Shown here piece by piece: positions 8,947-25,712 of a stretch of 32,000 nt of DNA (the stretch's first letter is position 1; every line of letters begins with the position of its first letter). The stretch comes from Candidatus Nitrospira inopinata (GTDB taxonomy: Bacteria > Nitrospirota > Nitrospiria > Nitrospirales > Nitrospiraceae). The stretch covers positions 1,410,001 through 1,442,000 of the forward strand of contig NZ_LN885086.1 in assembly GCF_001458695.1 (NCBI RefSeq). Reading direction: 5' to 3'. The translations under genes were made by a program, and so were the position numbers. A model generated the notes under the pieces. The model did no database searches and was not told the origin of the DNA. It saw nothing but the letters and a program-made list of their open reading frames with translations.

Positions 8947-10113
8947 TCATTCTTTTGGGGACACGCCTCCCAGGCCGATCACGGAGGAGCCGTAGCGGGC
9001 GATGAGCGAGTCCATGGCTTGGATGGCTCTGGCTCTTCGTTCATCGAACAGCCCCGGCGCGGCGGGGGCGAGGTCCGTGAGTGCGAGGCCGGCCAGGCGA
9101 TAGGCCGTGCCGGGCTTGATGAGATCGTGGAAGACTTGCCGCACCGTCGGCCACATGTCCGGCTCATAATTGAGCGGGCGGGAAAACCGTCGCCGTTTGG
9201 TGGTGACGGTAAACCGCGAGTCCTTGAGTTTCACGGCGCAAGCGGCGGCGGCCGCTCCGTCTTGCCGAAGGTCGTGGGCCAGCACGCTCAGGAATCCGCG
9301 CAGCGTCCGTTCGAGCAATGAACGATCGCGCGTATCCCGATCAAACGTCGTTTCACGGCTGATGCTTTTTGATTCCCGATCGGAGACGACCGGTTCTTGA
9401 TCGATTCCTCGCGCCAGGTCTCTGACGGCGGTCAGACCGTCGCCGAGCAGATGCCGGAGCGGACCGTCCCAACGGGCGTCCAGGAGGTCGCCGATGGTTG
9501 TGAGCCCGAGCCTCGTCATTTTTGATTCCGTCTTGGGGCCGACGCCGGGCAAGGCCCGCAGAGGACAGGGAGCAAGAAAAGACGGTTTGGCCCCCGGTTC
9601 GACCACGATAAGTCCGTCCGGTTTATGGCGGTCGGCGGCGATTTTGGCGACGGTCTTGCCGGAGGCGATCGCGATGGTGCAACGAAGGCCGGTTGCGGCA
9701 AAGAGTTCGTCTTTCACGAGCCGCCCCAATGTCACGGGATCGGGATGCAGCGATTGCAGCTCCGTGGTCTCGGCATAGAATTCGTCGATGCTGCTCCATT
9801 CGGTCAAGGGGAACAGCCGATCGGTCACAGCCCGCATGGTCTCATGCAATCGTCGATACAACGGCCGATCCGGCGGGAGGAGGATGAGGTCCGGACACAA
9901 TTGAAGGGCTTTGGCCGTGGGCATGGCGGAGCGTACGCCGAAGGCCCTCACGGCGTAGCTCGCCGCCGCAATGATTCCCCGCGGCGGCGGTCCTCCGACC
10001 GCGATCGGTTTGCCGGCAAGAGAAGGGTCCTTGATTACGGCGGCGGACGCAAACATGGCGTCCACGTCGGCGAACAAGACTTGGCGCGGCCAGCGCGAGG
10101 GAGGCATCGTCAT
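8947..10113 (-). CDS. dinB: DNA polymerase IV (Y-family translesion polymerase)
   Basis: FADVDAMFASAAV (catalytic Asp block), SIDEFY, CTIAIASGKTVAKIAADRHKPDG and LPGVGPKTESKM (HhH). 388 aa. Confidence 0.9.
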   Translation of the reverse strand: MTMPPSRWPRQVLFADVDAMFASAAVIKDPSLAGKPIAVGGPPPRGIIAAASYAVRAFGVRSAMPTAKALQLCPDLILLPPDRPLYRRLHETMRAVTDRLFPLTEWSSIDEFYAETTELQSLHPDPVTLGRLVKDELFAATGLRCTIAIASGKTVAKIAADRHKPDGLIVVEPGAKPSFLAPCPLRALPGVGPKTESKMTRLGLTTIGDLLDARWDGPLRHLLGDGLTAVRDLARGIDQEPVVSDRESKSISRETTFDRDTRDRSLLERTLRGFLSVLAHDLRQDGAAAAACAVKLKDSRFTVTTKRRRFSRPLNYEPDMWPTVRQVFHDLIKPGTAYRLAGLALTDLAPAAPGLFDERRARAIQAMDSLIARYGSSVIGLGGVSPKE

Positions 10114-10161
10114 CGGTCATTCCCGGGATGAAAGAAAGATCGAAGTCGGAACGGGAAAATT

Positions 10162-10845
10162 TTATGGACCGAAGGAGGGAAATTCCAGCGTCAATTGTCC
10201 GGCCGGTTTATCGAAGAGGCCGGATGTCGGCTTCCTATTCGATCCGATGGACGAAGGGCGCGCGACGTCTTCGGTGCGCAATTCCTCGAGCGCGCCGCGG
10301 CACAGGCCGCAGTGATGGCGGCGCGGGTTGATGGTGTTCCGCTGTCGATGGTAGATCTGGCCGCACGTTCGGCAGCGCCACGTGAATCGAGCCAAGGACA
10401 GCACTTCGGGTTGAAGGGAATGATAGGTGGTGACGGCCACCTCGCCCGAGCGGTTCATCTCGGTCATTTTTCGCAAAAAATCCAACCCGTGATTCGGTCG
10501 TCGTTTCAGCACGTCGAATTGCCATTGGTGGATCATTTCGTGGGCGAGGGTGTTGAGCAGTTCCTGTTCCATATATCGCGTGCGGGCCGCCAGCCGTTCA
10601 AACAGGGGGAGGGACAGACGGATTTCCCGACGGCTGGAAGCAGGTCCCGGAAGCCGTGTTCGCGGGCCGCCGCGGCCGGCGAACAGGCCGACCGAGGACG
10701 TGAGGCGTCGGCTCCAGACGATGGAGATCGGCGGCAACAGGCCTGCGAAGTAACGCTGATTCAGACGAGTCCACTCCCGTTGCAGCGCGTCCTGAGAGAA
10801 TGAATCAGATGGGGAAGGCGGCCGAACGTCCATGGGCGCTGGCAA
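10162..10845 (-). CDS. SprT-like zinc metalloprotease with C-terminal zinc ribbon
   Basis: HEMIHQW (HExxH), and C-terminal WRCRTCG...HHCGLCRG (CxxC...CxxC), the typical SprT family architecture. Confidence 0.75.
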   Translation of the reverse strand: MPAPMDVRPPSPSDSFSQDALQREWTRLNQRYFAGLLPPISIVWSRRLTSSVGLFAGRGGPRTRLPGPASSRREIRLSLPLFERLAARTRYMEQELLNTLAHEMIHQWQFDVLKRRPNHGLDFLRKMTEMNRSGEVAVTTYHSLQPEVLSLARFTWRCRTCGQIYHRQRNTINPRRHHCGLCRGALEELRTEDVARPSSIGSNRKPTSGLFDKPAGQLTLEFPSFGP

Positions 10846-10852
10846 CGGCGCG

Positions 10853-11440
10853 CTAGGATGCGCCGAGCAGTTGTTCCTCGACCAGTTCGCAGAGGACGTG
10901 GCCGAGCGTGATGTGGCTTTCTTGAATGCGGGACGTGACCGTGGAGGGAACGATGAAGGGATAATCCACCATGCCGGCCAGCTTGCTGCCCTTTGCGCCG
11001 GTCCAGGCCACCGTGGTCAATCCGCACTCGCGGGCCGCTTCGACGCCTTTCAACACGTTGGGCGAGTTGCCGCTGGTGCTGATCGCGATCGCGACGTCGC
11101 CTTTTCGTCCGTGCGCCCGCACTTGTCTGGCAAAGAGTTCTTCGTAGCCGAAGTCATTGGCGATGCAGGTGATCGCGGCGATGTCGGTCGCCAGGGCAAT
11201 GGCGGGCAACGGCTGGCGGTTCCGCATGTAGCGTCCGACGAATTCGGCCGCGATGTGAGCCGCGTCGGTGGCGCTCCCGCCGTTGCCGAACAGCAGCACC
11301 TTGTTGCCCTGGCGGAAGGCGTCGGCCATCAGGCGGGCGACTTGCGCGATGCGGTCGGCATGGTCGCGGGCGAACTGCTCCTTCACGCGCGCGCTGTCGC
11401 TGAATGCGTTGAGGGCCGAGTCTTTCAACGGGGCGTTCAT
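10853..11440 (-). CDS. gmhA: phosphoheptose isomerase (D-sedoheptulose-7-phosphate isomerase, SIS domain)
   Basis: LLFGNGGSATDAAHIAAEF and AISTSGNSPNV SIS motifs. Starting at ATG 11440 gives 195 aa, the normal GmhA size. The ORF-track TTG start at 11476 lies inside the -35 hexamer of the predicted promoter. Confidence 0.9.
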   Translation of the reverse strand: MNAPLKDSALNAFSDSARVKEQFARDHADRIAQVARLMADAFRQGNKVLLFGNGGSATDAAHIAAEFVGRYMRNRQPLPAIALATDIAAITCIANDFGYEELFARQVRAHGRKGDVAIAISTSGNSPNVLKGVEAARECGLTTVAWTGAKGSKLAGMVDYPFIVPSTVTSRIQESHITLGHVLCELVEEQLLGAS

Positions 11441-11447
11441 GGGCGCG

Positions 11448-11476
11448 ATTCTAGGGGAGGCGGTCCGACGTGTCAA
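11448..11476 (-). promoter_or_regulatory. sigma-70-type promoter TTGACA-N17-TAGAAT for gmhA (leaderless arrangement)
   Basis: Minus strand: TTGACA (11476-11471), exactly 17 nt of spacer, TAGAAT (11453-11448). The gmhA ATG (11440) begins 7 nt after the -10 hexamer, with no SD in between. Confidence 0.5.
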
Positions 11477-11511
11477 ACGTGAAGCCGCAAGACGTGTCCG
11501 TTACGGTCGAA

Positions 11512-11540
11512 TTGAACGGGCGTGGAACCGATGGTATAGT
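11512..11540 (+). promoter_or_regulatory. sigma-70-type promoter TTGAAC-N17-TATAGT for the CARF-family gene (leaderless or near-leaderless)
   Basis: TTGAAC (11512-11517), 17 nt spacer, TATAGT (11535-11540). ATG at 11550, 9 nt after the -10 hexamer. The intervening ccgggcgcc has no SD. Confidence 0.5.
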
Positions 11541-11549
11541 CCGGGCGCC

Positions 11550-12806
11550 ATGGCGCAGGATCAACCGGTCAAAGCTCTTGTGATCGCGCTGGTGAATGAT
11601 CCGGCGGCGGCGGTCTATTCGATCAATCGACTGAAGCCCGACAAGTTGTGTTTTGTCCTGCCGGAAAGCGGAAAGGGCGTGGTGGAGTCGGCGGTGCAGC
11701 CCAAGATCGAGCGGATGCCGCAGCGGTGGGACTGGATCATTCTCGCCGATACGGAGGAGTTTGCCGGTTGCCACCGGACGCTCGCCGCGTCCTTGCCCGA
11801 CCTCTTGCGGACGTGGGAAGTGCAGCCGGGCGAACTGGTCGTCGAGCTCACTGGCGCGACTCCGGCCATGGCCGGGGCCCTGTCGGTCGCCACGCTGCCC
11901 TGGAGCTCCCGGATCGTCTGGCTCGTTCCGGCTCGCGGGGAAGGGGATGATGACGTCATCGATTTGGAAGGACGCCGATGGGCGTGGACGCAAACGAACC
12001 CGTGGGATGAAGCGGCGGCGGTCTCCCGACGGGAAGGGTGTGAGTTGTTTAACAAGGGCGACTTTTCCGCCGCCGCGAAGCTGTTTCATGAGGTGGAGCT
12101 GCGGGTCAGCGGCGGCGGGAAGCCGTTGTATCGCGCCTTGGCCGACGTGGCTGAAGGATACGAGCGGTGGGAACGGTTTCACTACCGACAGGCATGGGAC
12201 AAGCTCAAGGGGGCGCTCAAGGCGTTGGAGATGGCGTCGCTCTGGGGAGGGCCGCCGGGGGTGAAAACGACGGTGTCCGGCATCAAAGCCAACGTGGGTT
12301 TTCTGGAGCGGCTGGTGCTGGACCCGGCGGAGGTCAAGGAGCTGCTGGTGGCCGATTTGTTGGCCCATGCAACCCGACGCCTTCAGGTTTCGCGAGATCC
12401 TGAAGGAGCGATGGTCGCGCTCCTCCGCGCCCTCGAAGCTTCTGCGCAGAGTCGGCTTTTCAAGCAATATCAGATCAAAAGTTGGGACGTGCGGCCGGAA
12501 TCCCTTCCGCCCGCCCTCCAGGAAACCTGTCGAACCTGCTATCTGGACGACATCGACGGCAAATACAAGTTGCCTCTGCCGGCGCAGTTTCGCGCGTTGG
12601 CCGGGTTGGGCGATCAATTGGGCCAATCGTTTCTTCGCGAATGGCCGGCCATGAAGCCGCTGCTCGATGCGGCGTCCCATGCCGTGCTCGGTCACGGTTT
12701 CGAGCCGATCAGAGGCGAGCGCGTCCAACAACTGTACGAAGTGGTCGTCAAGCTAACGGGTGTCACGGAGTCGGCGTTGCCGAAATTTCCGGCCCTGGCC
12801 CTTTAG
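11550..12806 (+). CDS. TIGR02710-like (Cas_Cas02710) CARF-domain protein with a HEPN-like C-terminus; orphan, with no cas genes nearby
   Basis: N-terminal Rossmann-like CARF signature: KALVIALVNDP...KLCFVLPES...VVELTGATPAMAGAL (compare the TGGTK.M loop). Mid/C-terminal blocks match my recollection of the TIGR02710 family: ATRRLQVSRDPEGAMVALLRALEASAQSRL and SHAVLGHGFEPI. The ORF-track 5' extension to 11268 overlaps gmhA and is rejected. Confidence 0.65.
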   Translation: MAQDQPVKALVIALVNDPAAAVYSINRLKPDKLCFVLPESGKGVVESAVQPKIERMPQRWDWIILADTEEFAGCHRTLAASLPDLLRTWEVQPGELVVELTGATPAMAGALSVATLPWSSRIVWLVPARGEGDDDVIDLEGRRWAWTQTNPWDEAAAVSRREGCELFNKGDFSAAAKLFHEVELRVSGGGKPLYRALADVAEGYERWERFHYRQAWDKLKGALKALEMASLWGGPPGVKTTVSGIKANVGFLERLVLDPAEVKELLVADLLAHATRRLQVSRDPEGAMVALLRALEASAQSRLFKQYQIKSWDVRPESLPPALQETCRTCYLDDIDGKYKLPLPAQFRALAGLGDQLGQSFLREWPAMKPLLDAASHAVLGHGFEPIRGERVQQLYEVVVKLTGVTESALPKFPALAL

Positions 12807-13450: not shown

Positions 13451-14044
13451 ATGAGTCAGCAGATTCCTGGATATACCTATGGCACGGCGGCGGTCGCGAA
13501 GTCGCCCGTGTCACCGGAGGACTTCGAGCTCATGAAGAAGAGCGCGTTGTTCGGAGAAGAGGACGTGAAGTATCTGAAGATGTCCTATGACGTGGTGAAA
13601 GACCAGGTCGAGGCCATTCTGGACGTGTGGTACGGATTCGTCGGCTCCCAGCCTCACCTGCTCAAGGCGTTTCTCGGCAAGAGCGACGGTCAGCCGCTCG
13701 GTGATTACTTGGGCGGCGTCCGCAAGCGGTTCGGTCAGTGGATTCTCGATACCGCGCGCGCCGAGTATGATCAGAGGTGGCTGGATTACCAGCATGAAAT
13801 CGGGCTTCGGCATCATCGGACCAAGAAAAATAAGACCGACAATGCCCCTGCCTCGGCCGATATCGTGCCGTTCCGTGATTTGTTTGCGCTGGTTTTCCCG
13901 GTGACGTTTACGTTGAAACCGTTTCTCGCCAAGAAGGGCCATTCGGCCGAGGATGTGGACAAGATGTACAATGCCTGGCTGAAGTCCTGCCTTCTGCAAG
14001 TGACGCTTTGGAGCTACCCCTACGTCAAGAGCGGAGATTTTTAA
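13451..14044 (+). CDS. protoglobin (single-domain haem globin of the globin-coupled-sensor lineage)
   Basis: Near end-to-end resemblance to my recollection of Methanosarcina acetivorans protoglobin: IPGYTYG, ILD.WYGFVGS.PHLL, VRKRF..WILDT, WLDYQ.EIGLRHHRTKKN.TDN, KPFLA.KGH, LQV.LWSYPYVK.GDF. SD AAAGGAG lies upstream. Confidence 0.9.
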   Translation: MSQQIPGYTYGTAAVAKSPVSPEDFELMKKSALFGEEDVKYLKMSYDVVKDQVEAILDVWYGFVGSQPHLLKAFLGKSDGQPLGDYLGGVRKRFGQWILDTARAEYDQRWLDYQHEIGLRHHRTKKNKTDNAPASADIVPFRDLFALVFPVTFTLKPFLAKKGHSAEDVDKMYNAWLKSCLLQVTLWSYPYVKSGDF

Positions 14045-20171: not shown

Positions 20172-20486
20172 TCAGCCGATCTTTTCCGCCAATGACTCGA
20201 GCTTGTCGAGCGCGGCCGCAAATTTCTTGATGGACGACGCCACCTTGTCGAGCTTTTTCTTGGCGGCGTCCGCCTCCGCGTTGGCCGCATGGAGGGCCTC
20301 GGTCGCCTCTGCATATTCGGGCAAAGTCTCATCGACGACCCCGTCCACAAACACCTGAAGTTGTCCAGCGATTTTGGCCTGTTGACGGGTCAACTGCGTC
20401 CGCTCGGCCTTGCTCTCCGTTTTGATGATCAACGCCGTGATGTTCGACAGCGCCGCGCTGAGTTCCTCACCGAGGCTGTTGGCCAT
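20172..20486 (-). CDS. hypothetical 104-aa all-helical / coiled-coil protein
   Basis: ATG 20486 with AAAGGA upstream, 14 nt after the lipoprotein gene stop. A/E/K/L-rich heptad-like sequence. No family recognised. Confidence 0.55.
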   Translation of the reverse strand: MANSLGEELSAALSNITALIIKTESKAERTQLTRQQAKIAGQLQVFVDGVVDETLPEYAEATEALHAANAEADAAKKKLDKVASSIKKFAAALDKLESLAEKIG

Positions 20487-20499
20487 GGTCCACGTCCTT

Positions 20500-21414
20500 T
20501 CAGTGTGTAGGGATGATGGTCGCTAAGTGCTTGAGGGATCGCGCCCGTTCGGCGAACGATCGGATGTCCTCGACCGACCACTCGAAGTGATCGACGGCGC
20601 GGACTACCGCGGTATTGGCCTGTTTCATGGCTTGAGCCGCCTCGACGACGCGGGAGAGGATTTCGGTCCGCCGCATTCTGTTTTCATAAGCCAGCCGGAA
20701 GGCCCGGAGGGCGATTTTTCGGTCGTGGTACGTCTCGCCGTCGTATAAGGCGTTCGTCGCCTCGGCCATCAGCGGATCCTCGATGACTTGGAGTTGGAGC
20801 GCCACCCAGCCCCGTTTGGGGTCGAAGTCGCGGATGAGCAGATCGCAAAGACGATCGACCGCCTGTTGTGACGCTTTGACGATGGTGATCACCGCTTCCT
20901 TGCGTTTCCACTCGACCCAAAACCGGCCGACTCCTTGAACGGCCGTCGCGATGGCTTCGAGCTGGTCGTCTGACAGTTGCTGCCTGGCTTCCGGAATACG
21001 ACTAAGGCTGGCCGTAAATTCGTGACTGGCGGCGCTCAGGTCGGCCGATTGCGAATCGGCGACCAGGGCCGCGAGGGTTTTCCCATACCCTGCCAAGGCA
21101 TGGGTCGCTCCTGTGATGGTCTCGACGCGATTGAGCTCGAAGCCTCGATCGAGCGAGGTTTGATCTCCCAGATTGGGATCTTTGCTCTTTCCGCCGAGCA
21201 GGAGCCGCTCGATCGTCATGTTGATGGTGCCGTCGCGCATGGCCTGTAATTCGGAGGACGTGACGTCGCCGAGCGTGGCGGCGGAGTCGCTGAATTGGCT
21301 GACGGCCGCCTTTTGCTTGGCCGTGAGGGCGCAGCCGCTTGCGAAGCACAGCAGCAGGACAAGGGCGAGCGGGACGCCCCGCCTGGAATGAATTGTTGAG
21401 GTGAATGAGACCAT
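20500..21414 (-). CDS. hypothetical lipoprotein (304 aa, largely helical)
   Basis: ATG 21414 is preceded by AAAGGAG (5-nt spacer). Signal plus lipobox: RRGVPLALVLLLCFASGC. The ORF-track 5' extension to 21504 has no SD. Confidence 0.6.
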   Translation of the reverse strand: MVSFTSTIHSRRGVPLALVLLLCFASGCALTAKQKAAVSQFSDSAATLGDVTSSELQAMRDGTINMTIERLLLGGKSKDPNLGDQTSLDRGFELNRVETITGATHALAGYGKTLAALVADSQSADLSAASHEFTASLSRIPEARQQLSDDQLEAIATAVQGVGRFWVEWKRKEAVITIVKASQQAVDRLCDLLIRDFDPKRGWVALQLQVIEDPLMAEATNALYDGETYHDRKIALRAFRLAYENRMRRTEILSRVVEAAQAMKQANTAVVRAVDHFEWSVEDIRSFAERARSLKHLATIIPTH

Positions 21415-21869
21415 CGCGGCTCCTTTCTCAATGAGGCGAATCGGCGTTTGCTCCTCGATGATTCTGCACGGGCGCGCAACCGACGGTCGCGTCGTTCGCT
21501 TCATCCGCGTTGCCTTCCGTTCAGACCCGAAAGCGCTATGCTAAAATCCGGGGCGAAGTCTGTCAGGATTGAAACCAAAGCGCAAGACGTCAATCGTAAA
21601 AAGGAAGACGGACGAAAAGCCGACGGCGGGAGTCGAAGCGTCGTAAATCGCACATCCTCTCGGGCAACGGTAGATGCACCGTTTCGCCGACAACAGAAAC
21701 AAGCGGACTCTCTCCGAACATCCATCAAAGGAAACTCACCAGGAACACACCGTTTTTATTTCACCGGCGGTGTCAAAGGTGGAAAAGCAAACCGATGGTC
21801 TTGCGGCAAGGAGCGTGTTTCTATCCCCCGCGCCCCCGCAGGCCCCACGCGTTCTTTACGAGCAAGACA

Positions 21870-21903
21870 CCCGCCTGCCCAGCTAGTGCTCACGGCGGGC
21901 GGG
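21870..21903 (-). terminator. hairpin downstream of the S8 operon (terminator-like)
   Basis: CCCGCCTGCC (21870-21879) and GGCGGGCGGG (21894-21903) form a 10-bp stem with one G-U pair and a 14-nt loop. It lies about 45 nt downstream of the 91-aa gene stop. The U-tract is poor. Confidence 0.4.
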
Positions 21904-21947
21904 CGTCTCTTTGTCATGAAGAAAGCAATCGCCACCTGATTGGATTC

Positions 21948-22223
21948 TCACTCGCTGCTCGGCGCACCGCCGGCATCGGTGTCAGAAGATGACCCCGAAG
22001 GAGAGGTGGCTGCGCCCTCGATCGCTTCAACCAACCAGGATTGGGGTGAACCACCGTCCATTCCCTCTCGTGCCGTTGATGCCGGAAGTGTCTCGGCAAC
22101 CGCTTGAAGGAGCGTCTCGGATGGCCCTCCTCCATCCATTGTCGCTACGGGCGTGGGTAGCGATTGGTTGGCGATGGGGGAGGTGATCCCCGTTTGTTCG
22201 GCTGATTCAATGATGATTCGCAT
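21948..22223 (-). CDS. hypothetical acidic, low-complexity 91-aa protein with an internal repeat (last gene of the S8 operon)
   Basis: ATG 22223 is preceded by AAGGAGG (5-nt spacer), 14 nt after the upstream stop. S/T/P/G/E/D-rich. Repeat MDGGGPSETLLQAVAE / MDGGSPQSWLVEAIEG. Confidence 0.45.
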   Translation of the reverse strand: MRIIIESAEQTGITSPIANQSLPTPVATMDGGGPSETLLQAVAETLPASTAREGMDGGSPQSWLVEAIEGAATSPSGSSSDTDAGGAPSSE

Positions 22224-22236
22224 TCTTGCCTCCTTG

Positions 22237-22494
22237 CTAGTTTAAGACGGCATACCGTGCCTCGATGTTCACCGGATTGGGCGTAAGATTTTTGATCGTA
22301 ATCCAATACGTGATGTGGGTGCTCGATGCCCGCTCGACCGCCACGCTCCACTCGATCTGAGGACCCCCCGTTACTATCGGCGAAGTGGATACGACATACC
22401 ACACGACGTGCCATGCTTGCGGCCAACTGTGAGTGAACCAACGACGGGTGGCGCCGCCCGGAACAGTTCCCGTAAATTGCACTCCAACTCTCAT
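22237..22494 (-). CDS. free-standing 85-aa paralogue of the S8 protease C-terminal domain
   Basis: ATG 22494 is preceded by AAAGGAG. MRVGVQFTGTVPGGATRRWFTHSWPQAWHVVWYVVSTSP..GGPQIEWSVAVERASSTHITYWITIKNLTPNPVNIEARYAVLN aligns colinearly (roughly two thirds identical by eye) with residues about 531-616 of the adjacent S8 protein. Confidence 0.7.
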   Translation of the reverse strand: MRVGVQFTGTVPGGATRRWFTHSWPQAWHVVWYVVSTSPIVTGGPQIEWSVAVERASSTHITYWITIKNLTPNPVNIEARYAVLN

Positions 22495-22793
22495 GATGAT
22501 TCTCCTTTCAGTTTGACGTTCTGTGTCCTGAGTTACCAGCCAAGCACGGCGTACCGTGCCTCAATGCTCACGGGAACCGGTGTCAGATTTGTAATGCAGA
22601 TCCAGTAGGTGATGTGTCGGTCGGAAGCGCGCTCCACTTTCACCTTCCACTCGATCTGTGGTCCGCCGGGTCGAGGACTGGTCGGCACAACGGTCCAGAC
22701 GACGTGCCAATGCGCAGGCCAGCTATGAGTGAACCAACATTGGGTGCCATTTGCCGGGATGGTCCCGGTAAATTGAACGCCGACCCACGTTCT
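22237..22793 (-). repeat. tandem duplicated coding module of about 255 bp (stand-alone gene plus the 3' end of the S8 gene)
   Basis: DNA-level similarity is visible between 22237-22494 and 22536-22793. Shared blocks: taccgtgcctc, ccactcgatctg, gacgtgcca, tgagtgaaccaac and cc(c/g)gtaaattg, in the same order and spacing. Confidence 0.7.
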
Positions 22794-24383
22794 CGTCTCC
22801 AACGCACGGGCGATGAGTTGCCTCAAGTTAGGGCGGTTGCCGATACGCTGGGTGCGTGGACGGGCTGGATGGTTCTGAGGGTATCCCGTGCCGGTCATGT
22901 TGGGAATAAACGTAAATGCCGGTCCGTCCTCCTGTGGAGAACCGGTGGCTCGTAACAACTCGATGGCGCGGGCGGGGCTGAGGGGGATCCGTCCATGGGC
23001 TCGGAGCACTCCCTGCACGCAGGCCAACGCACCGACCACGATGGGAGAAGCGCTTGAAGTGCCGCTGAATTGATCCGTGTACCATTGGTTGCGGTCGGTT
23101 CCTCCCTGGAGGTCTCCGTACCCGGTCGAGGTCACTTCCCATCCCCATCCTTGCGCATCGACTCTGGCGCCGTAGTTTGAAAAAAAGCACCGTCCTCGAT
23201 CAGCGTACACGTCGCCCCAGTCTGGGTGGCGATTTCTGCCATGCGTCCCTGTTGGAGGCAAGCCTGCCCCAACGACCACTGCGCCGGAAGTGGGGTTGGC
23301 GGGGTTGAAGGGGTTTCTCCAACTTGTCGGAAACGTCCCTAGTTCTGGATGCCCAACAGGTCTTGTGTTGTAGATGGCGTCGTCCAGATTTTGCCCTCCA
23401 TTGCCAGCCGCTTCGACAACGATGATACCTTTGCTGACGGCGTAGCGAATGGCATCGAAGTCATCCGGCCACCATTCGATGGCAATGAAGCCGAATTGAC
23501 CGCTCCCGGCGGAACCGCGAGGGCCTGGCCGATGGACTTCAAGAAGGATAATGTCGCCCGGTCGCAGTCGATCGGCGGCAATACGGATAGCCTGGGCCGT
23601 ACCGTGGGTGACCAGAGAGACAGCGCTCACATGGGCGTCGGAGCTGATTCCCGTGATGCCGAATGTATTACGGTCTCCGCTGAATTCGCCAATGACCGCC
23701 GTGCCGTGATTCTCCGAGCGAAGCACGGAGGAGTTCGTTCCTGAAACCACGCCTCCTTGGTTTTGGGTTAAGTCTTCATGGGTGAAGCGCCAGCCCCACT
23801 CAATATCGATGATATTCACCCCGGCACCTCTCCCTCCCGGCAGAGTCCAGGCATGGCGCGCGTCGATGCCGACCGGAGCCGCGTTGAGATATTCCTGGCG
23901 GGCCGTAAAATCAGGCGTGTGGTGGGGAGGCTCATCGAGTTGTGGAGCCATATTGTTCAATCGGAACTCCGCCGGTTCCGCAGGGGGCTTTACGTATGCG
24001 GCGTCGACCTCCGGCATTTGCCGAAGCCTGTTCGCCAGTTCATCGAGTCGCTCATCGGGAGCCTCGACATGATAATAGACGGACAGATCCGGCACCTCCG
24101 AACCGGTCTCTCTGGCCAGGGAAGCGACCGTTTCTTGAAGCCGCTCCTCGCGCATGCCGAACAGCGGCTCAATCGAGACGTTTTCAGAAGCGAAAAAATT
24201 GGCCAAGGCGCTGACATCGGCTCCGATTGCAGAAGCCACGCCTTCTTTTGTTGCGCGTAGCCCGACCTCACGTTTTGCCACGACGATTAATTCTCGTTTT
24301 AACGCTGTGCCTTCATCAGCCTGTGAATTTCCAGGCGACGGAGGTCCTGTTTTTGACGGTTTTGCCATGGAAATGGCCTCCAT
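22533..24383 (-). CDS. S8 family (subtilisin-like) serine peptidase with an N-terminal I9-like prodomain and an unclassified C-terminal domain; no signal peptide seen
   Basis: Catalytic blocks: GAGVNIIDIEWG (Asp193, codon 23805-23807), ENHGTAVIGEF (His226), VEAAGNGG (oxyanion Asn328), SGTSSASPIVVGA (Ser443, codon 23055-23057). The N-terminus MEAISMAKPSKTGPPSPGNSQADEG has no hydrophobic stretch. Alternative ATG at 24368 with GGAGG upstream. Confidence 0.9.
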   Translation of the reverse strand: MEAISMAKPSKTGPPSPGNSQADEGTALKRELIVVAKREVGLRATKEGVASAIGADVSALANFFASENVSIEPLFGMREERLQETVASLARETGSEVPDLSVYYHVEAPDERLDELANRLRQMPEVDAAYVKPPAEPAEFRLNNMAPQLDEPPHHTPDFTARQEYLNAAPVGIDARHAWTLPGGRGAGVNIIDIEWGWRFTHEDLTQNQGGVVSGTNSSVLRSENHGTAVIGEFSGDRNTFGITGISSDAHVSAVSLVTHGTAQAIRIAADRLRPGDIILLEVHRPGPRGSAGSGQFGFIAIEWWPDDFDAIRYAVSKGIIVVEAAGNGGQNLDDAIYNTRPVGHPELGTFPTSWRNPFNPANPTSGAVVVGAGLPPTGTHGRNRHPDWGDVYADRGRCFFSNYGARVDAQGWGWEVTSTGYGDLQGGTDRNQWYTDQFSGTSSASPIVVGALACVQGVLRAHGRIPLSPARAIELLRATGSPQEDGPAFTFIPNMTGTGYPQNHPARPRTQRIGNRPNLRQLIARALETRTWVGVQFTGTIPANGTQCWFTHSWPAHWHVVWTVVPTSPRPGGPQIEWKVKVERASDRHITYWICITNLTPVPVSIEARYAVLGW

Positions 24384-24396
24384 AAGAAATTAGACG

Positions 24397-24669
24397 TTAA
24401 GGTAACTCATCCGGCGGCTTCACATAGACTCCCTCTACTCCTCTCGAGTGCTGGAGACGGCTCATCACACGCTGGGCCGTCGCATAGTCCGCAACCTCCA
24501 CGAGAAAATACCGCCGGAGGAGGGGATCGTCCGTACGAGAATGCATCGGCTTCAACACGAGTCCGAATGTTTCCACGATCTTCAACAATTCCTCTGATTC
24601 TGCACCGGGAGGCCCGTGTCGATGAAGCGCCTCGGCCGCCTCCGACGACACGTGAACGATCACCTGCAT
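24397..24669 (-). CDS. free-standing 90-aa I9-like (subtilase prodomain-like) protein, first gene of the S8 operon
   Basis: ATG 24669 is preceded by AAAGGAGGTG (6-nt spacer). ...YFLVEVADYATAQRVMSRLQHSRGVEGVYVKPPDELP parallels the S8 N-terminal region ...VYYHVEAPDERLDELANRLRQMPEVDAAYVKPPAEP. Confidence 0.65.
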   Translation of the reverse strand: MQVIVHVSSEAAEALHRHGPPGAESEELLKIVETFGLVLKPMHSRTDDPLLRRYFLVEVADYATAQRVMSRLQHSRGVEGVYVKPPDELP

Positions 24670-24827
24670 TAGTTGCACCTCCTTTCATAGGCCGACTTTG
24701 CCGGCGATTTGCGATGGTCGCTGTGCTTAAGTGCCTCCGCCACCTGCTGGGGCGTCTCAGGTCGCCATGACCGTTCTGCCAGTGGGCGTGGCGGCCAAGA
24801 GGTGGTTACGATGTACTACGTATATCA

Positions 24828-24847
24828 AGCACGCACGATTCGTGCCA
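24828..24847 (-). promoter_or_regulatory. sigma-54 (-24/-12) type promoter upstream of the S8 operon
   Basis: Minus strand reads CTGGCAC-GAATC-GTGC-GTGCT, that is TGGCAC-N5-(G)TGC. The GG and GC have canonical spacing, about 165 nt upstream of ATG 24669. A near-identical extended element lies at 25582-25601. Confidence 0.5.
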
Positions 24848-24973: not shown

Positions 24974-25570
24974 TTATCTCGATTTCGCCAATCCCTCGTG
25001 CTTGAGCAATTCAGCCACGTTCTGCCCATTGACGAAGACATCGGCGACCACGCGATCGTACACGTCTCGGCCGCGCGGGATAAGCTGAATCGATCCAGCG
25101 CCCAGCAGATCCCTCAGCCGCTGTGTCGCCGCCCATCCATTCGGCTCGCTCAGTTCCGGTGCATCGATGCCGCGAAGCCTGATCCGTTCCGCTCCGATCC
25201 GGATCGTGTCGCCGTCGATGACGGTGATCTGGTGCGCGCTGATGAGTCCTGAATTGTGTCGGCGTTGAGAGTGGGGCAAGAACAGCGATGACGAGGGTTT
25301 CTTGTCGGGAGCAAGATGGTAGCCTTCCTTGGGAATGCGGCGTGGTCGGCTGTCCGGGGGGCGCCGAGGGCGACGAGGCTTGACGGTCGGCAGCCGGTTC
25401 GGATCTGTTTCCTTGAGGGAAGGAGTCCAACAGAGATCGCAGTTCATCGGAAGGTTGGAACCGAGGTCGGACTCTGGAAGGCGCTCGGCGTTTGCGCCTG
25501 TTCCCGAGGGAGCTGCTTCCAAGAGAGAAAGAACAAGAACCAGACAGGTGATCGTGCGGCGCGACGTCAT
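24974..25570 (-). CDS. secreted staphylococcal-nuclease-like (SNase/thermonuclease family) nuclease
   Basis: Signal peptide MTSRRTITCLVLVLSLLEAAPSGTGANA, a basic P/R-rich linker, then the SNase core VIDGDTIRIG..RIRLRGIDAPE...DRYGR-like DVYDRVVADVFVNGQNV. The ORF is open up to 25648, but the signal peptide begins at ATG 25570. Confidence 0.8.
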   Translation of the reverse strand: MTSRRTITCLVLVLSLLEAAPSGTGANAERLPESDLGSNLPMNCDLCWTPSLKETDPNRLPTVKPRRPRRPPDSRPRRIPKEGYHLAPDKKPSSSLFLPHSQRRHNSGLISAHQITVIDGDTIRIGAERIRLRGIDAPELSEPNGWAATQRLRDLLGAGSIQLIPRGRDVYDRVVADVFVNGQNVAELLKHEGLAKSR

Positions 25571-25581
25571 GACGCTGGAAG

Positions 25582-25601
25582 AGCACGCAGAGGATGTGCC
25601 A
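25582..25601 (-). promoter_or_regulatory. second sigma-54-type element, immediately upstream of the SNase gene
   Basis: Minus strand reads TGGCAC-ATCCT-CTGC-GTGCT. It shares TGGCAC-N6-TGCGTGCT with the element at 24828-24847. The -12 C lies 17 nt before ATG 25570, so the leader would be very short. Confidence 0.35.
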
Positions 25602-25612
25602 CGGCTCTTCGG

Positions 25613-25642
25613 TTGACAACGGTCAAAATCGCATGCTGCAAT
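25613..25642 (+). promoter_or_regulatory. candidate sigma-70 promoter for the 76-aa gene
   Basis: TTGACA (25613-25618), 18-nt spacer, TGCAAT (25637-25642), about 70 nt upstream of ATG 25713. Confidence 0.35.
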
Positions 25643-25712
25643 ATCCACGTTCGCGCAGGGCTTGCCGCGCGCCGGCTGATGCGCATGATGAGGATGAACG
25701 GAGGTTCAAGTC

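Follow-up and report, generated by a model that had tools for sequence, protein, structure and literature searches.

In a 32,000-nucleotide (nt) stretch of the Candidatus Nitrospira inopinata genome (contig NZ_LN885086.1, positions 1,410,001 to 1,442,000; the window below), we found that four co-directional, tightly spaced minus-strand genes, read as open reading frames (ORFs) in the order g1, S8, g3 and g4, constitute a module that recurs across bacteria and archaea. The S8 gene encodes a subtilase without a leader, g1 and g3 encode free-standing paralogues of the N-terminal pro-region and the C-terminal domain (C-domain) of that enzyme, and g4 encodes a small acidic protein (Table 1). Tentatively, and with a confidence somewhat short of even, we propose that these genes form a cytoplasmic subtilase cassette, self-contained and horizontally spread, which is self-regulated via paralogues of its own domains. 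An initial annotation of the window, made from its letters alone, had described four co-linear genes with tight gaps; the ORFs are real, and their order is conserved across phyla.

We scanned one genome per GTDB species, which yielded at least 583 S8 relatives, and examined the best 80 loci; locus counts for g1, g3, g4 and the C-domain were obtained with hidden Markov models iterated on the ORFs of the examined loci. The best 80 loci, at 48-84% identity, come from more than 10 bacterial phyla, including Nitrospirota, Proteobacteria, Actinomycetota, Chloroflexota, Cyanobacteriota, Bacteroidota, Acidobacteriota and Planctomycetota, plus Haloferax and Methanotrichaceae. The order 89 aa, S8, 84 aa and 104-110 aa was also seen in gene calls made independently for metagenomes and for a cyanobacterial genome. 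Since the gene order is repeated in dozens of unrelated genomes, the arrangement is not due to chance. No other conserved neighbours were detected: all-against-all clustering of 4144 flank ORFs returned only the module and its alternative frames, and the genes nearest to the cassette are diverse, ordinary metabolic or housekeeping genes. With no further gene family recurring beside it, the cassette is considered self-contained. Copies are found on chromosomes and on megaplasmids (Haloferax, Nostoc, Bacillus), and the distribution, patchy yet spanning bacteria and archaea, with identities of 55-85% from phylum to phylum, implies horizontal transfer. Collectively, these comparisons indicate that the cassette is ancient, widespread and horizontally spread.

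Peptidase_S8 (PF00082) matched residues 213-459 of the S8 protein at 46.9 bits (cut-off 21.8), and NCBIfam matches were sub-threshold only; the protein falls in a divergent S8 clade. The catalytic set D193/H226/N328/S443 (616-aa numbering), which had been read as intact in the initial annotation, was invariant in 20 diverse homologues, and in 611-aa numbering (D188/H221/N323/S438) it was invariant across 61 homologues, confirming the assignment to S8. The AlphaFold2 (AF2) model (predicted local distance difference test (pLDDT) 80.9, predicted template modelling score (pTM) 0.87) predicts a disordered basic tail at residues 1-22, a beta/alpha N-domain at residues 26-127, a linker, the catalytic domain and, directly following it, an all-beta sandwich C-domain with strands at residues 528-610. 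The predicted pro-region ends in AAYVKPPAEPA, next to a low-confidence linker at residues 134-143. Foldseek comparison of the full model returned many subtilases at probability 1.0; the closest solved structures were Tk-SP, which has a propeptide and a C-terminal beta-jelly-roll, followed by furin/kexin with a P-domain, and Bacillus intracellular subtilisins (ISPs) also were among the best solved-structure matches.

The N-terminal region of the S8 model is a beta/alpha domain in the position of an I9 propeptide, and the full model aligns with the propeptide-bearing Tk-SP. The protein encoded by g1 had been described as resembling this prodomain. Pairwise alignment showed weak similarity (38% over 40 aa, E 2e-4), but profile comparison by hhalign matched g1 residues 23-90 with S8 residues 50-135 at 98.1% (E 6.5e-14), with a 17-residue insertion in the S8 pro-region relative to g1. 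The resemblance was thereby upheld, and by its profile g1 is a true paralogue of the S8 N-terminal pro-region. The g1 family comprises 575 representatives (50%-identity clusters), mostly of ~90 aa, in which the match reaches the C-terminus. The family C-terminus reads ...Y-x-K-P-P-D-E-x-P, with the window g1 ending in ...YVKPPDELP-COOH. Y-x-K-P is the best-conserved segment of both g1 and the S8 pro-region, where Y-V-K-P is nearly invariant; g1 stops 4-5 residues past Y-x-K-P, shortly after the shared Y-x-K-P-P, and the last residue is Pro in 90% or more of its members; g1 thereby ends near where the C-terminus of a prodomain is expected. The Pfam matches of g1 members were weak and limited to families with a ferredoxin-like beta-alpha-beta-beta-alpha-beta fold (ACT, GYD, HMA). 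A g1 gene was directly upstream of 48/83 surveyed S8 genes.

The similarity between g3 and the end of the S8 protein is far stronger. The initial annotation had recognized this paralogy but put the identity at about two thirds; the paralogy stands, and the figure was too low, as we found 74% identity over 82 aa (S8 residues 534-614, E 8e-38). The g3 AF2 model (pLDDT 94) is a six-strand sandwich. We collected 450 g3 homologues, of which the best 120 are all 83-85 aa and lack a Pfam domain; Pfam, PPC (PF04151) included, gave no match for g3, for the S8 C-terminus or for 56 homologues of g3. Among 81 related S8 genes, 61 have a fused C-domain, and the S8 genes without it carry DUF5648, DUF346, BTRD1 or CarboxypepD_reg modules at that place. 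A free g3 was directly downstream in 42/61 S8 genes with the C-domain versus 0/20 without. This neighbourhood survey, proposed at the outset, shows together with the g1 count given above that the small genes co-occur with S8 homologues. The nearest neighbour was of the same class for 41/43 g3 proteins and 61/62 fused C-domains, and each class has its own consistent substitutions. By this clustering, g3 is no local duplicate of the C-domain but a separate lineage of it, and an old one. The two distinct classes therefore indicate that the duplication is older than the spread of the cassette and that both copies were kept.

The last gene, g4, had been characterized as acidic with an internal repeat, which agrees with its composition (12 D+E versus 2 K+R) and with the repetition of a D-G-G-x-P element followed by a short helix. 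In the window protein, the N-terminal strand is MRIIIE, the helix motif D-G-G-x-P-x-x-(L/W)L occurs twice, and a D-A-G-G-A-P motif is C-terminal. In the family alignment, a conserved N-terminal M-R-I-x-I-E strand is followed by two to four repeated D-[AG]-G-x-[PA]-P-x-x-(L/W)-L motifs, each then a few helical residues, spaced by low-complexity acidic linkers of variable length. No Pfam or NCBIfam match was found for g4. We also considered g4 as a degenerate prodomain fragment and rejected this candidate (hhalign 1% versus g1 and 0.1% versus the S8 family). The haloarchaeal g4 homologues, at loci that lack g1, are longer at ~200 aa (L017 8063-8680, L018 8023-8652 and L021 8014-8613) and have an extra conserved C-terminal domain of ~50 aa (MDYEAIVSGTVEEVK.RV..G.LD...L.EAE..G..R.TLI.WLE).

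A g4 homologue follows g3 or S8 in ~57/62 C-domain loci and in none without a C-domain, and gain and loss of the C-domain go hand in hand with those of g3 and g4. Of the functional clues, the most specific is a correlation between g3 and the end of g4: in a comparison of 57 loci, made with a crude neighbour-joining (NJ) tree and incomplete phylogenetic correction, the terminal D-[AG]-G-x-[AP]-P of g4 was present at 32/40 loci with g3 versus 2/17 without (Fisher p = 2e-6). The presence of g3 switches ~10 times on the S8 NJ tree, and the terminal motif is absent in 6 of ~8 lineages that lack g3. This correlation suggests that g3 pairs with the C-terminal motif of g4, and, by the homology between g3 and the C-domain, the internal g4 motifs would be the partners of the fused C-domain.

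Had g4-type motifs been enriched in the basic N-terminal tails of S8 proteins, binding by the C-domain in cis would have been suggested, but this candidate was rejected, with 2-4/101 tails carrying such a motif versus 1.1-1.3 expected from shuffles, which is no enrichment. The tail itself (residues 1-25, 24294-24368), in the window protein and in homologues, is basic and of low complexity (MAKPSKTG...), and at its end, just before the first beta-strand, an acidic (D/E)(E/D)(G)(I/F)P motif recurs, which is distinct from the g4 motif.

The S8 protein had been described as having no N-terminal signal, and this extends to the module as a whole. The top 12-aa hydropathy within the first 60 residues was <2.0 in all 120 S8, 120 g3 and 19 g4 homologues scanned, compared to 2.68 for the adjacent nuclease and 2.89 for the adjacent lipoprotein-like ORF. 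A signal-peptide-like N-terminus is lacking in all four protein families, and for the S8 homologues this is true of bacteria and archaea alike.

In the mechanism that we propose for the cassette, the cis pro-region would fold S8 and then be removed at the flexible linker. g1 would bind mature S8 like a cleaved prodomain, with its Pro-rich C-tail in or near the substrate cleft, and this binding would keep S8 latent or, alternatively, assist folding. The S8 C-domain would serve as an exosite for the internal g4 motifs, with free g3 binding the C-terminal motif of g4 and thereby capping or competing for g4, which may be a multivalent partner, acting either as a tether/regulator or as the dedicated substrate. 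S8 might then be switched on when g1 is released or g4 processed, with regulated proteolysis inside the cell, conflict or cell death, or the release of peptides as conceivable outputs. There is a precedent for a propeptide acting in trans, as a subtilisin propeptide-like protein of Plasmodium potently inhibits SUB1 (PMC6993865). The roles given in the initial annotation (inhibitor, decoy or adaptor, and substrate) stay inference; decoy is one reading of g3, and the comparative data point more specifically to pairing between g3 and the g4 C-terminal motif. A broader form of the model, which we think unlikely, is a pan-prokaryotic latent-protease switch in which the free prodomain would hold S8 off, the free exosite domain would wire it to g4, and triggered proteolysis would set cell fate (abortive infection, programmed death or differentiation).

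Several observations weigh against a self-regulated cytoplasmic cassette. Pfam Inhibitor_I9 (PF05922), for which a check had been proposed at the outset, had no match at E ≤ 1 in g1, in 73 homologues of g1 or in the S8 protein, and comparison of the g1 profile with Protein Data Bank (PDB) sequences returned designed proteins only and no solved prodomain. g1 is missing at ~40% of loci, including 3/3 haloarchaeal loci surveyed, and therefore is not obligatory; g3 is missing at ~30% of C-domain-bearing loci. A Foldseek search of the C-domain fold with the g3 model, also proposed earlier, gave nothing at E ≤ 0.001 among PDB and viral models. The neighbours of g3 are weak: the best in the PDB is YPM 1pm4 (E 0.11, TMq 0.64), and others are chain 9ues_B of Tk-SP (E 0.83, TMq 0.63), the PPC structure 5sv5 (E 1.6) and phage fibre or receptor-binding knobs. 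The modelled fold is a generic small jelly-roll or knob-like sandwich. As no neighbour of the g3 fold reaches significance, the label of peptide-binding exosite is only an analogy. In other leaderless homologues the C-domain is replaced by lectin-like or extracellular-type modules, and some distant homologues are annotated with fused mucin- or GlcNAc-binding parts; these replacements hint at an extracellular function despite the absent signal peptide. The limits of the tree behind the g3-g4 correlation count on the same side.

The same module replacements are what would be expected of an ordinary degradative protease that is exported non-classically or by lysis, with g1 as a folding chaperone and C-terminal modules that bind substrate or matrix. 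GlcNAc- and mucin-binding fusions are annotated in distant homologues of insect-associated bacteria, the fold is like that of secreted enzymes with a beta-sandwich C-domain, namely Tk-SP and the furin type, and receptor-binding knobs and PPC domains are among the weak g3 neighbours. We nevertheless judge such a role improbable: a signal-peptide-like N-terminus was present in 0/120 homologues, secretion genes are not linked, and a scavenger needs neither a free copy of its binding domain nor a dedicated, co-evolving acidic motif protein. The initial annotation had entertained a mundane version in which the protease is co-regulated with the adjacent nuclease, and this we rejected, as the SNase homologue (24974-25648) and the downstream 334-aa and 104-aa ORFs are without counterpart in the 80 related loci (0/80). 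The repeats of g4 raise a different possibility, in which S8 would bind a g4 precursor via the C-domain and excise peptides from it, with the motifs as sites of recognition or cleavage. Two to four conserved motifs between variable linkers and the strict tie of g4 to the C-domain fit such a peptide-maturation cassette, and the S8 proteases PatA and PatG of the cyanobactin pathways act on repeat-bearing, multi-cassette precursors. Yet no conserved modification enzyme, transporter or immunity gene is nearby, no component has an export signal, the linkers are Ser/Thr/Ala/Gly/Pro/Glu low-complexity stretches of variable length and not peptide-like, and g3 and the N-terminal MRIIIE strand of g4 are left unexplained; by analogy, we hold this reading to be doubtful, with a small chance of being correct.

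A protease-based conflict system of the abortive infection or toxin-antitoxin type would have S8 as a latent toxin, g1 as a labile antitoxin-like trans prodomain, and g3 and g4 as sensor or effector. Linked protease and small-protein modules are a recognized defence logic (PMC12642450), the cassette is self-contained and leaderless and encodes an inhibitor-like partner, and its patchy, two-domain distribution, identity between phyla and megaplasmid copies all are in keeping with such a function. PADLOC-DB 2.0, however, gave no credible match for g1, S8, g3 or g4 (the sole entry was g3 at E 0.041), the loci lie outside defence islands, with PADLOC matches (E ≤ 1e-5) in 2/88 nearest flanking genes, and no sensor domain (STAND, CARF etc.) is fused or adjacent. 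The lack of g1 at ~40% of loci and the lack of relatives among 2.9 million viral contigs also speak against it, and we consider a conflict function possible by analogy, with about one chance in several.

The 2.9 million viral contigs (IMG/VR) also led us to reject a phage or virus origin of the cassette, since no relatives were found among them; in a phage database there were only distant S8 homologues, at 29-31% identity. Leaderless homologues that are more distant, at 29-49% identity, were seen in insect-associated bacteria and in elements of these bacteria, namely Bacillus cereus/thuringiensis/mycoides megaplasmids, Paenibacillus phage phiERICV and Sodalis phage phiSG1. The B. thuringiensis copy (L082) begins at the first pro-region strand, and the 77-aa ORF upstream of it is unlike g1 by eye. 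A Chloroflexia metagenome-assembled genome (L070, 3287-11018) carries two complete tandem S8 paralogues of this clade without the C-domain and a third match to the catalytic domain, split in two (9247-10282), with a g1-like ORF downstream, not upstream.

We compared the proposed subtilase cassette with known systems. Tk-SP (PDB 3afg, 9ues) and kexin/furin share with S8 the layout of a propeptide, a subtilisin domain and a C-terminal beta-jelly-roll or P-type sandwich, and the Tk-SP C-domain is among the closest, non-significant, fold neighbours of g3 (E 0.83, TMq 0.63). These enzymes are secreted, however, with 13-16% identity to S8, no free-standing copies of accessory domains and no g4-like partner. 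The Bacillus ISPs (PDB 2x8j, 2wv7, 2xrm), which are among the closest catalytic-domain matches, are leaderless, cytoplasmic and latent via an N-terminal extension. ISPs have only a short N-terminal peptide, with no I9-like pro-domain and no C-terminal beta-sandwich, and ISPs are not known to have operon partners of the g1, g3 or g4 kind. The Ca-dependent intracellular subtilase PrcA of Anabaena (Alr1381) may be a further relative. Yeast PBI2 and Pleurotus POIA1 are free I9 propeptide-like subtilase inhibitors that act in trans. These I9 inhibitors and the Plasmodium SUB1 propeptide-like protein are, like g1, small stand-alone relatives of subtilase pro-regions, and g1 would act in trans as well; PBI2, POIA1 and the Plasmodium inhibitor are eukaryotic and not in an operon with their target, unlike g1, and g1 has no Pfam Inhibitor_I9 match. 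The clostridial CspB/CspA/CspC germination subtilases are non-secreted, keep the prodomain bound and have paralogous partners encoded alongside (PMC3567191), but there the paralogues are whole protease or pseudoprotease copies, are limited to spore-formers and come with no g3 or g4 equivalents. In Pepco/Trypco, EACC1 and MBL modules and in gasdermin-protease pairs, the protease gene neighbours one for a small protein whose disordered tail is charged and Pro-rich, and cutting of this protein at a specific site is the switch (PMC12642450). Unlike these protease-effector defence modules, g3 and g4 are without a Pfam or PADLOC match, there is no attached sensor domain, the loci are outside defence islands, and the cassette is not known to be toxic. 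Features of a ribosomally synthesized and post-translationally modified peptide (RiPP) or cyanobactin-type cluster also were lacking, with no linked modification enzyme, transporter or recognizable precursor family at cassette loci.

No curated family for g1, g3 or g4 was present in Pfam 2025, NCBIfam 2026 or PADLOC 2023, and full-text literature searching, of limited coverage, found no published description of the cassette. With no curated family, defence catalogue or paper found, the earlier impression of an undescribed architecture holds: the enzyme itself is known, as an S8 protease with the three-part layout of Tk-SP and kexin, and what is previously undescribed is the accessory gene set across both prokaryotic domains. 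Subtilases are among the best-studied proteases, and their control by prodomains is textbook knowledge. A cassette found in two prokaryotic domains is annotated merely as an S8 peptidase plus hypothetical proteins, and our analysis adds three unannotated families, the putative trans prodomain paralogue g1, the free exosite-domain paralogue g3 and the short-motif disordered partner g4. If the proposed wiring is true, the cassette would be a compact, genetically tractable case in which a dangerous protease of the cytoplasm is kept latent and directed to a target, in hosts that include Streptomyces and Haloferax mediterranei, where the locus is HFX_RS17165/17160 on pHM500 and g1 is lacking, and it would provide a new recognition pair of a peptide motif and a beta-sandwich. 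Were the cell-fate switch also true, it would represent a new class of regulated protease system common to bacteria and archaea. The question posed is which benefit of a leaderless subtilase drives its exchange between archaea and a dozen bacterial phyla.

Table 1. Features of the subtilase cassette in the window (position 1 is the first letter of the 32,000-nt stretch).
Feature	Position	Strand	Basis and remarks
g1 Shine-Dalgarno (SD) sequence, AAAGGAGGTG	24676-24685	-	Read from sequence; 7 nt upstream of ATG 24669
g1, 90 aa, free-standing pro-region paralogue	24397-24669	-	ORF; annotated hypothetical protein WP_062484483.1
S8 subtilase, leaderless, 611 aa	22533-24368	-	Pfam PF00082; 616 aa if from upstream ATG 24383
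S8 N-terminal pro-region, aa 26-133	23970-24293	-	AF2 secondary structure and pLDDT; g1 homology
S8 C-terminal domain, aa 527-611, small all-beta sandwich (WFTHSWPAHWHVVW...)	22536-22790	-	AF2 strands 528-610
g3, 85 aa, free-standing C-domain paralogue	22237-22494	-	ORF; identity to S8 C-terminus
g4, 91 aa, acidic, mostly disordered	21948-22223	-	ORF; family alignment
GC-rich hairpin, likely operon terminator	21864-21909	-	~40 nt past g4 stop; RNA fold

The SD sequences of all four genes are as they had been described: besides that of g1, AAAGGAG precedes g3, AAGGAGG precedes g4, and GGAGG is located 8 nt before the S8 ATG at 24368. The 611-aa form of S8, which starts at this ATG, is the form in the NCBI annotation, as is the 90-aa ATG form of g1, for which an alternative GTG at 24678 falls within the SD sequence. 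The intergenic gaps are 13 nt between g1 and S8 (28 nt from ATG 24368), 38 nt between S8 and g3, and 13 nt between g3 and g4. The window S8 protein is 100% identical to a 'Serine protease' of Candidatus Nitrospira inopinata, and g1, g3 and g4 are in public collections, where, if named, they are called 'hypothetical protein'. A consensus scan found no sigma-70 promoter upstream of g1, and there was no Rfam match to a structured RNA in the region. RNA folding gave -42 kcal/mol for the hairpin past g4 (z = -3.65), with equal stability in 0/200 shuffles. This hairpin probably ends the operon, an assignment that is tentative because there is no clean T-run.

The cassette is flanked on one side by the SNase homologue (24974-25648, minus strand), which has a hydrophobic N-terminus, and on the other by the 334-aa lipoprotein-like ORF (20500-21504, minus strand) and the 104-aa coiled-coil ORF (20172-20486, minus strand); together with these three ORFs it occupies the space between a PAS/GAF histidine kinase-NtrC pair and hemL. 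Elsewhere in the window, a stand-alone CARF-HEPN (Csx1/Csm6-type) gene is present at 11268-12806 on the plus strand (PADLOC CARF1--CARF_HEPN, E 8e-249; Pfam Csm6 HEPN and 6H domains). It lies between SprT-like/DinB and protoglobin genes, with no CRISPR array or cas gene within the window. The protoglobin-family gene (13451-14044, plus strand; Pfam E 4e-27), which is unrelated to the cassette, is found beside isocitrate dehydrogenase.

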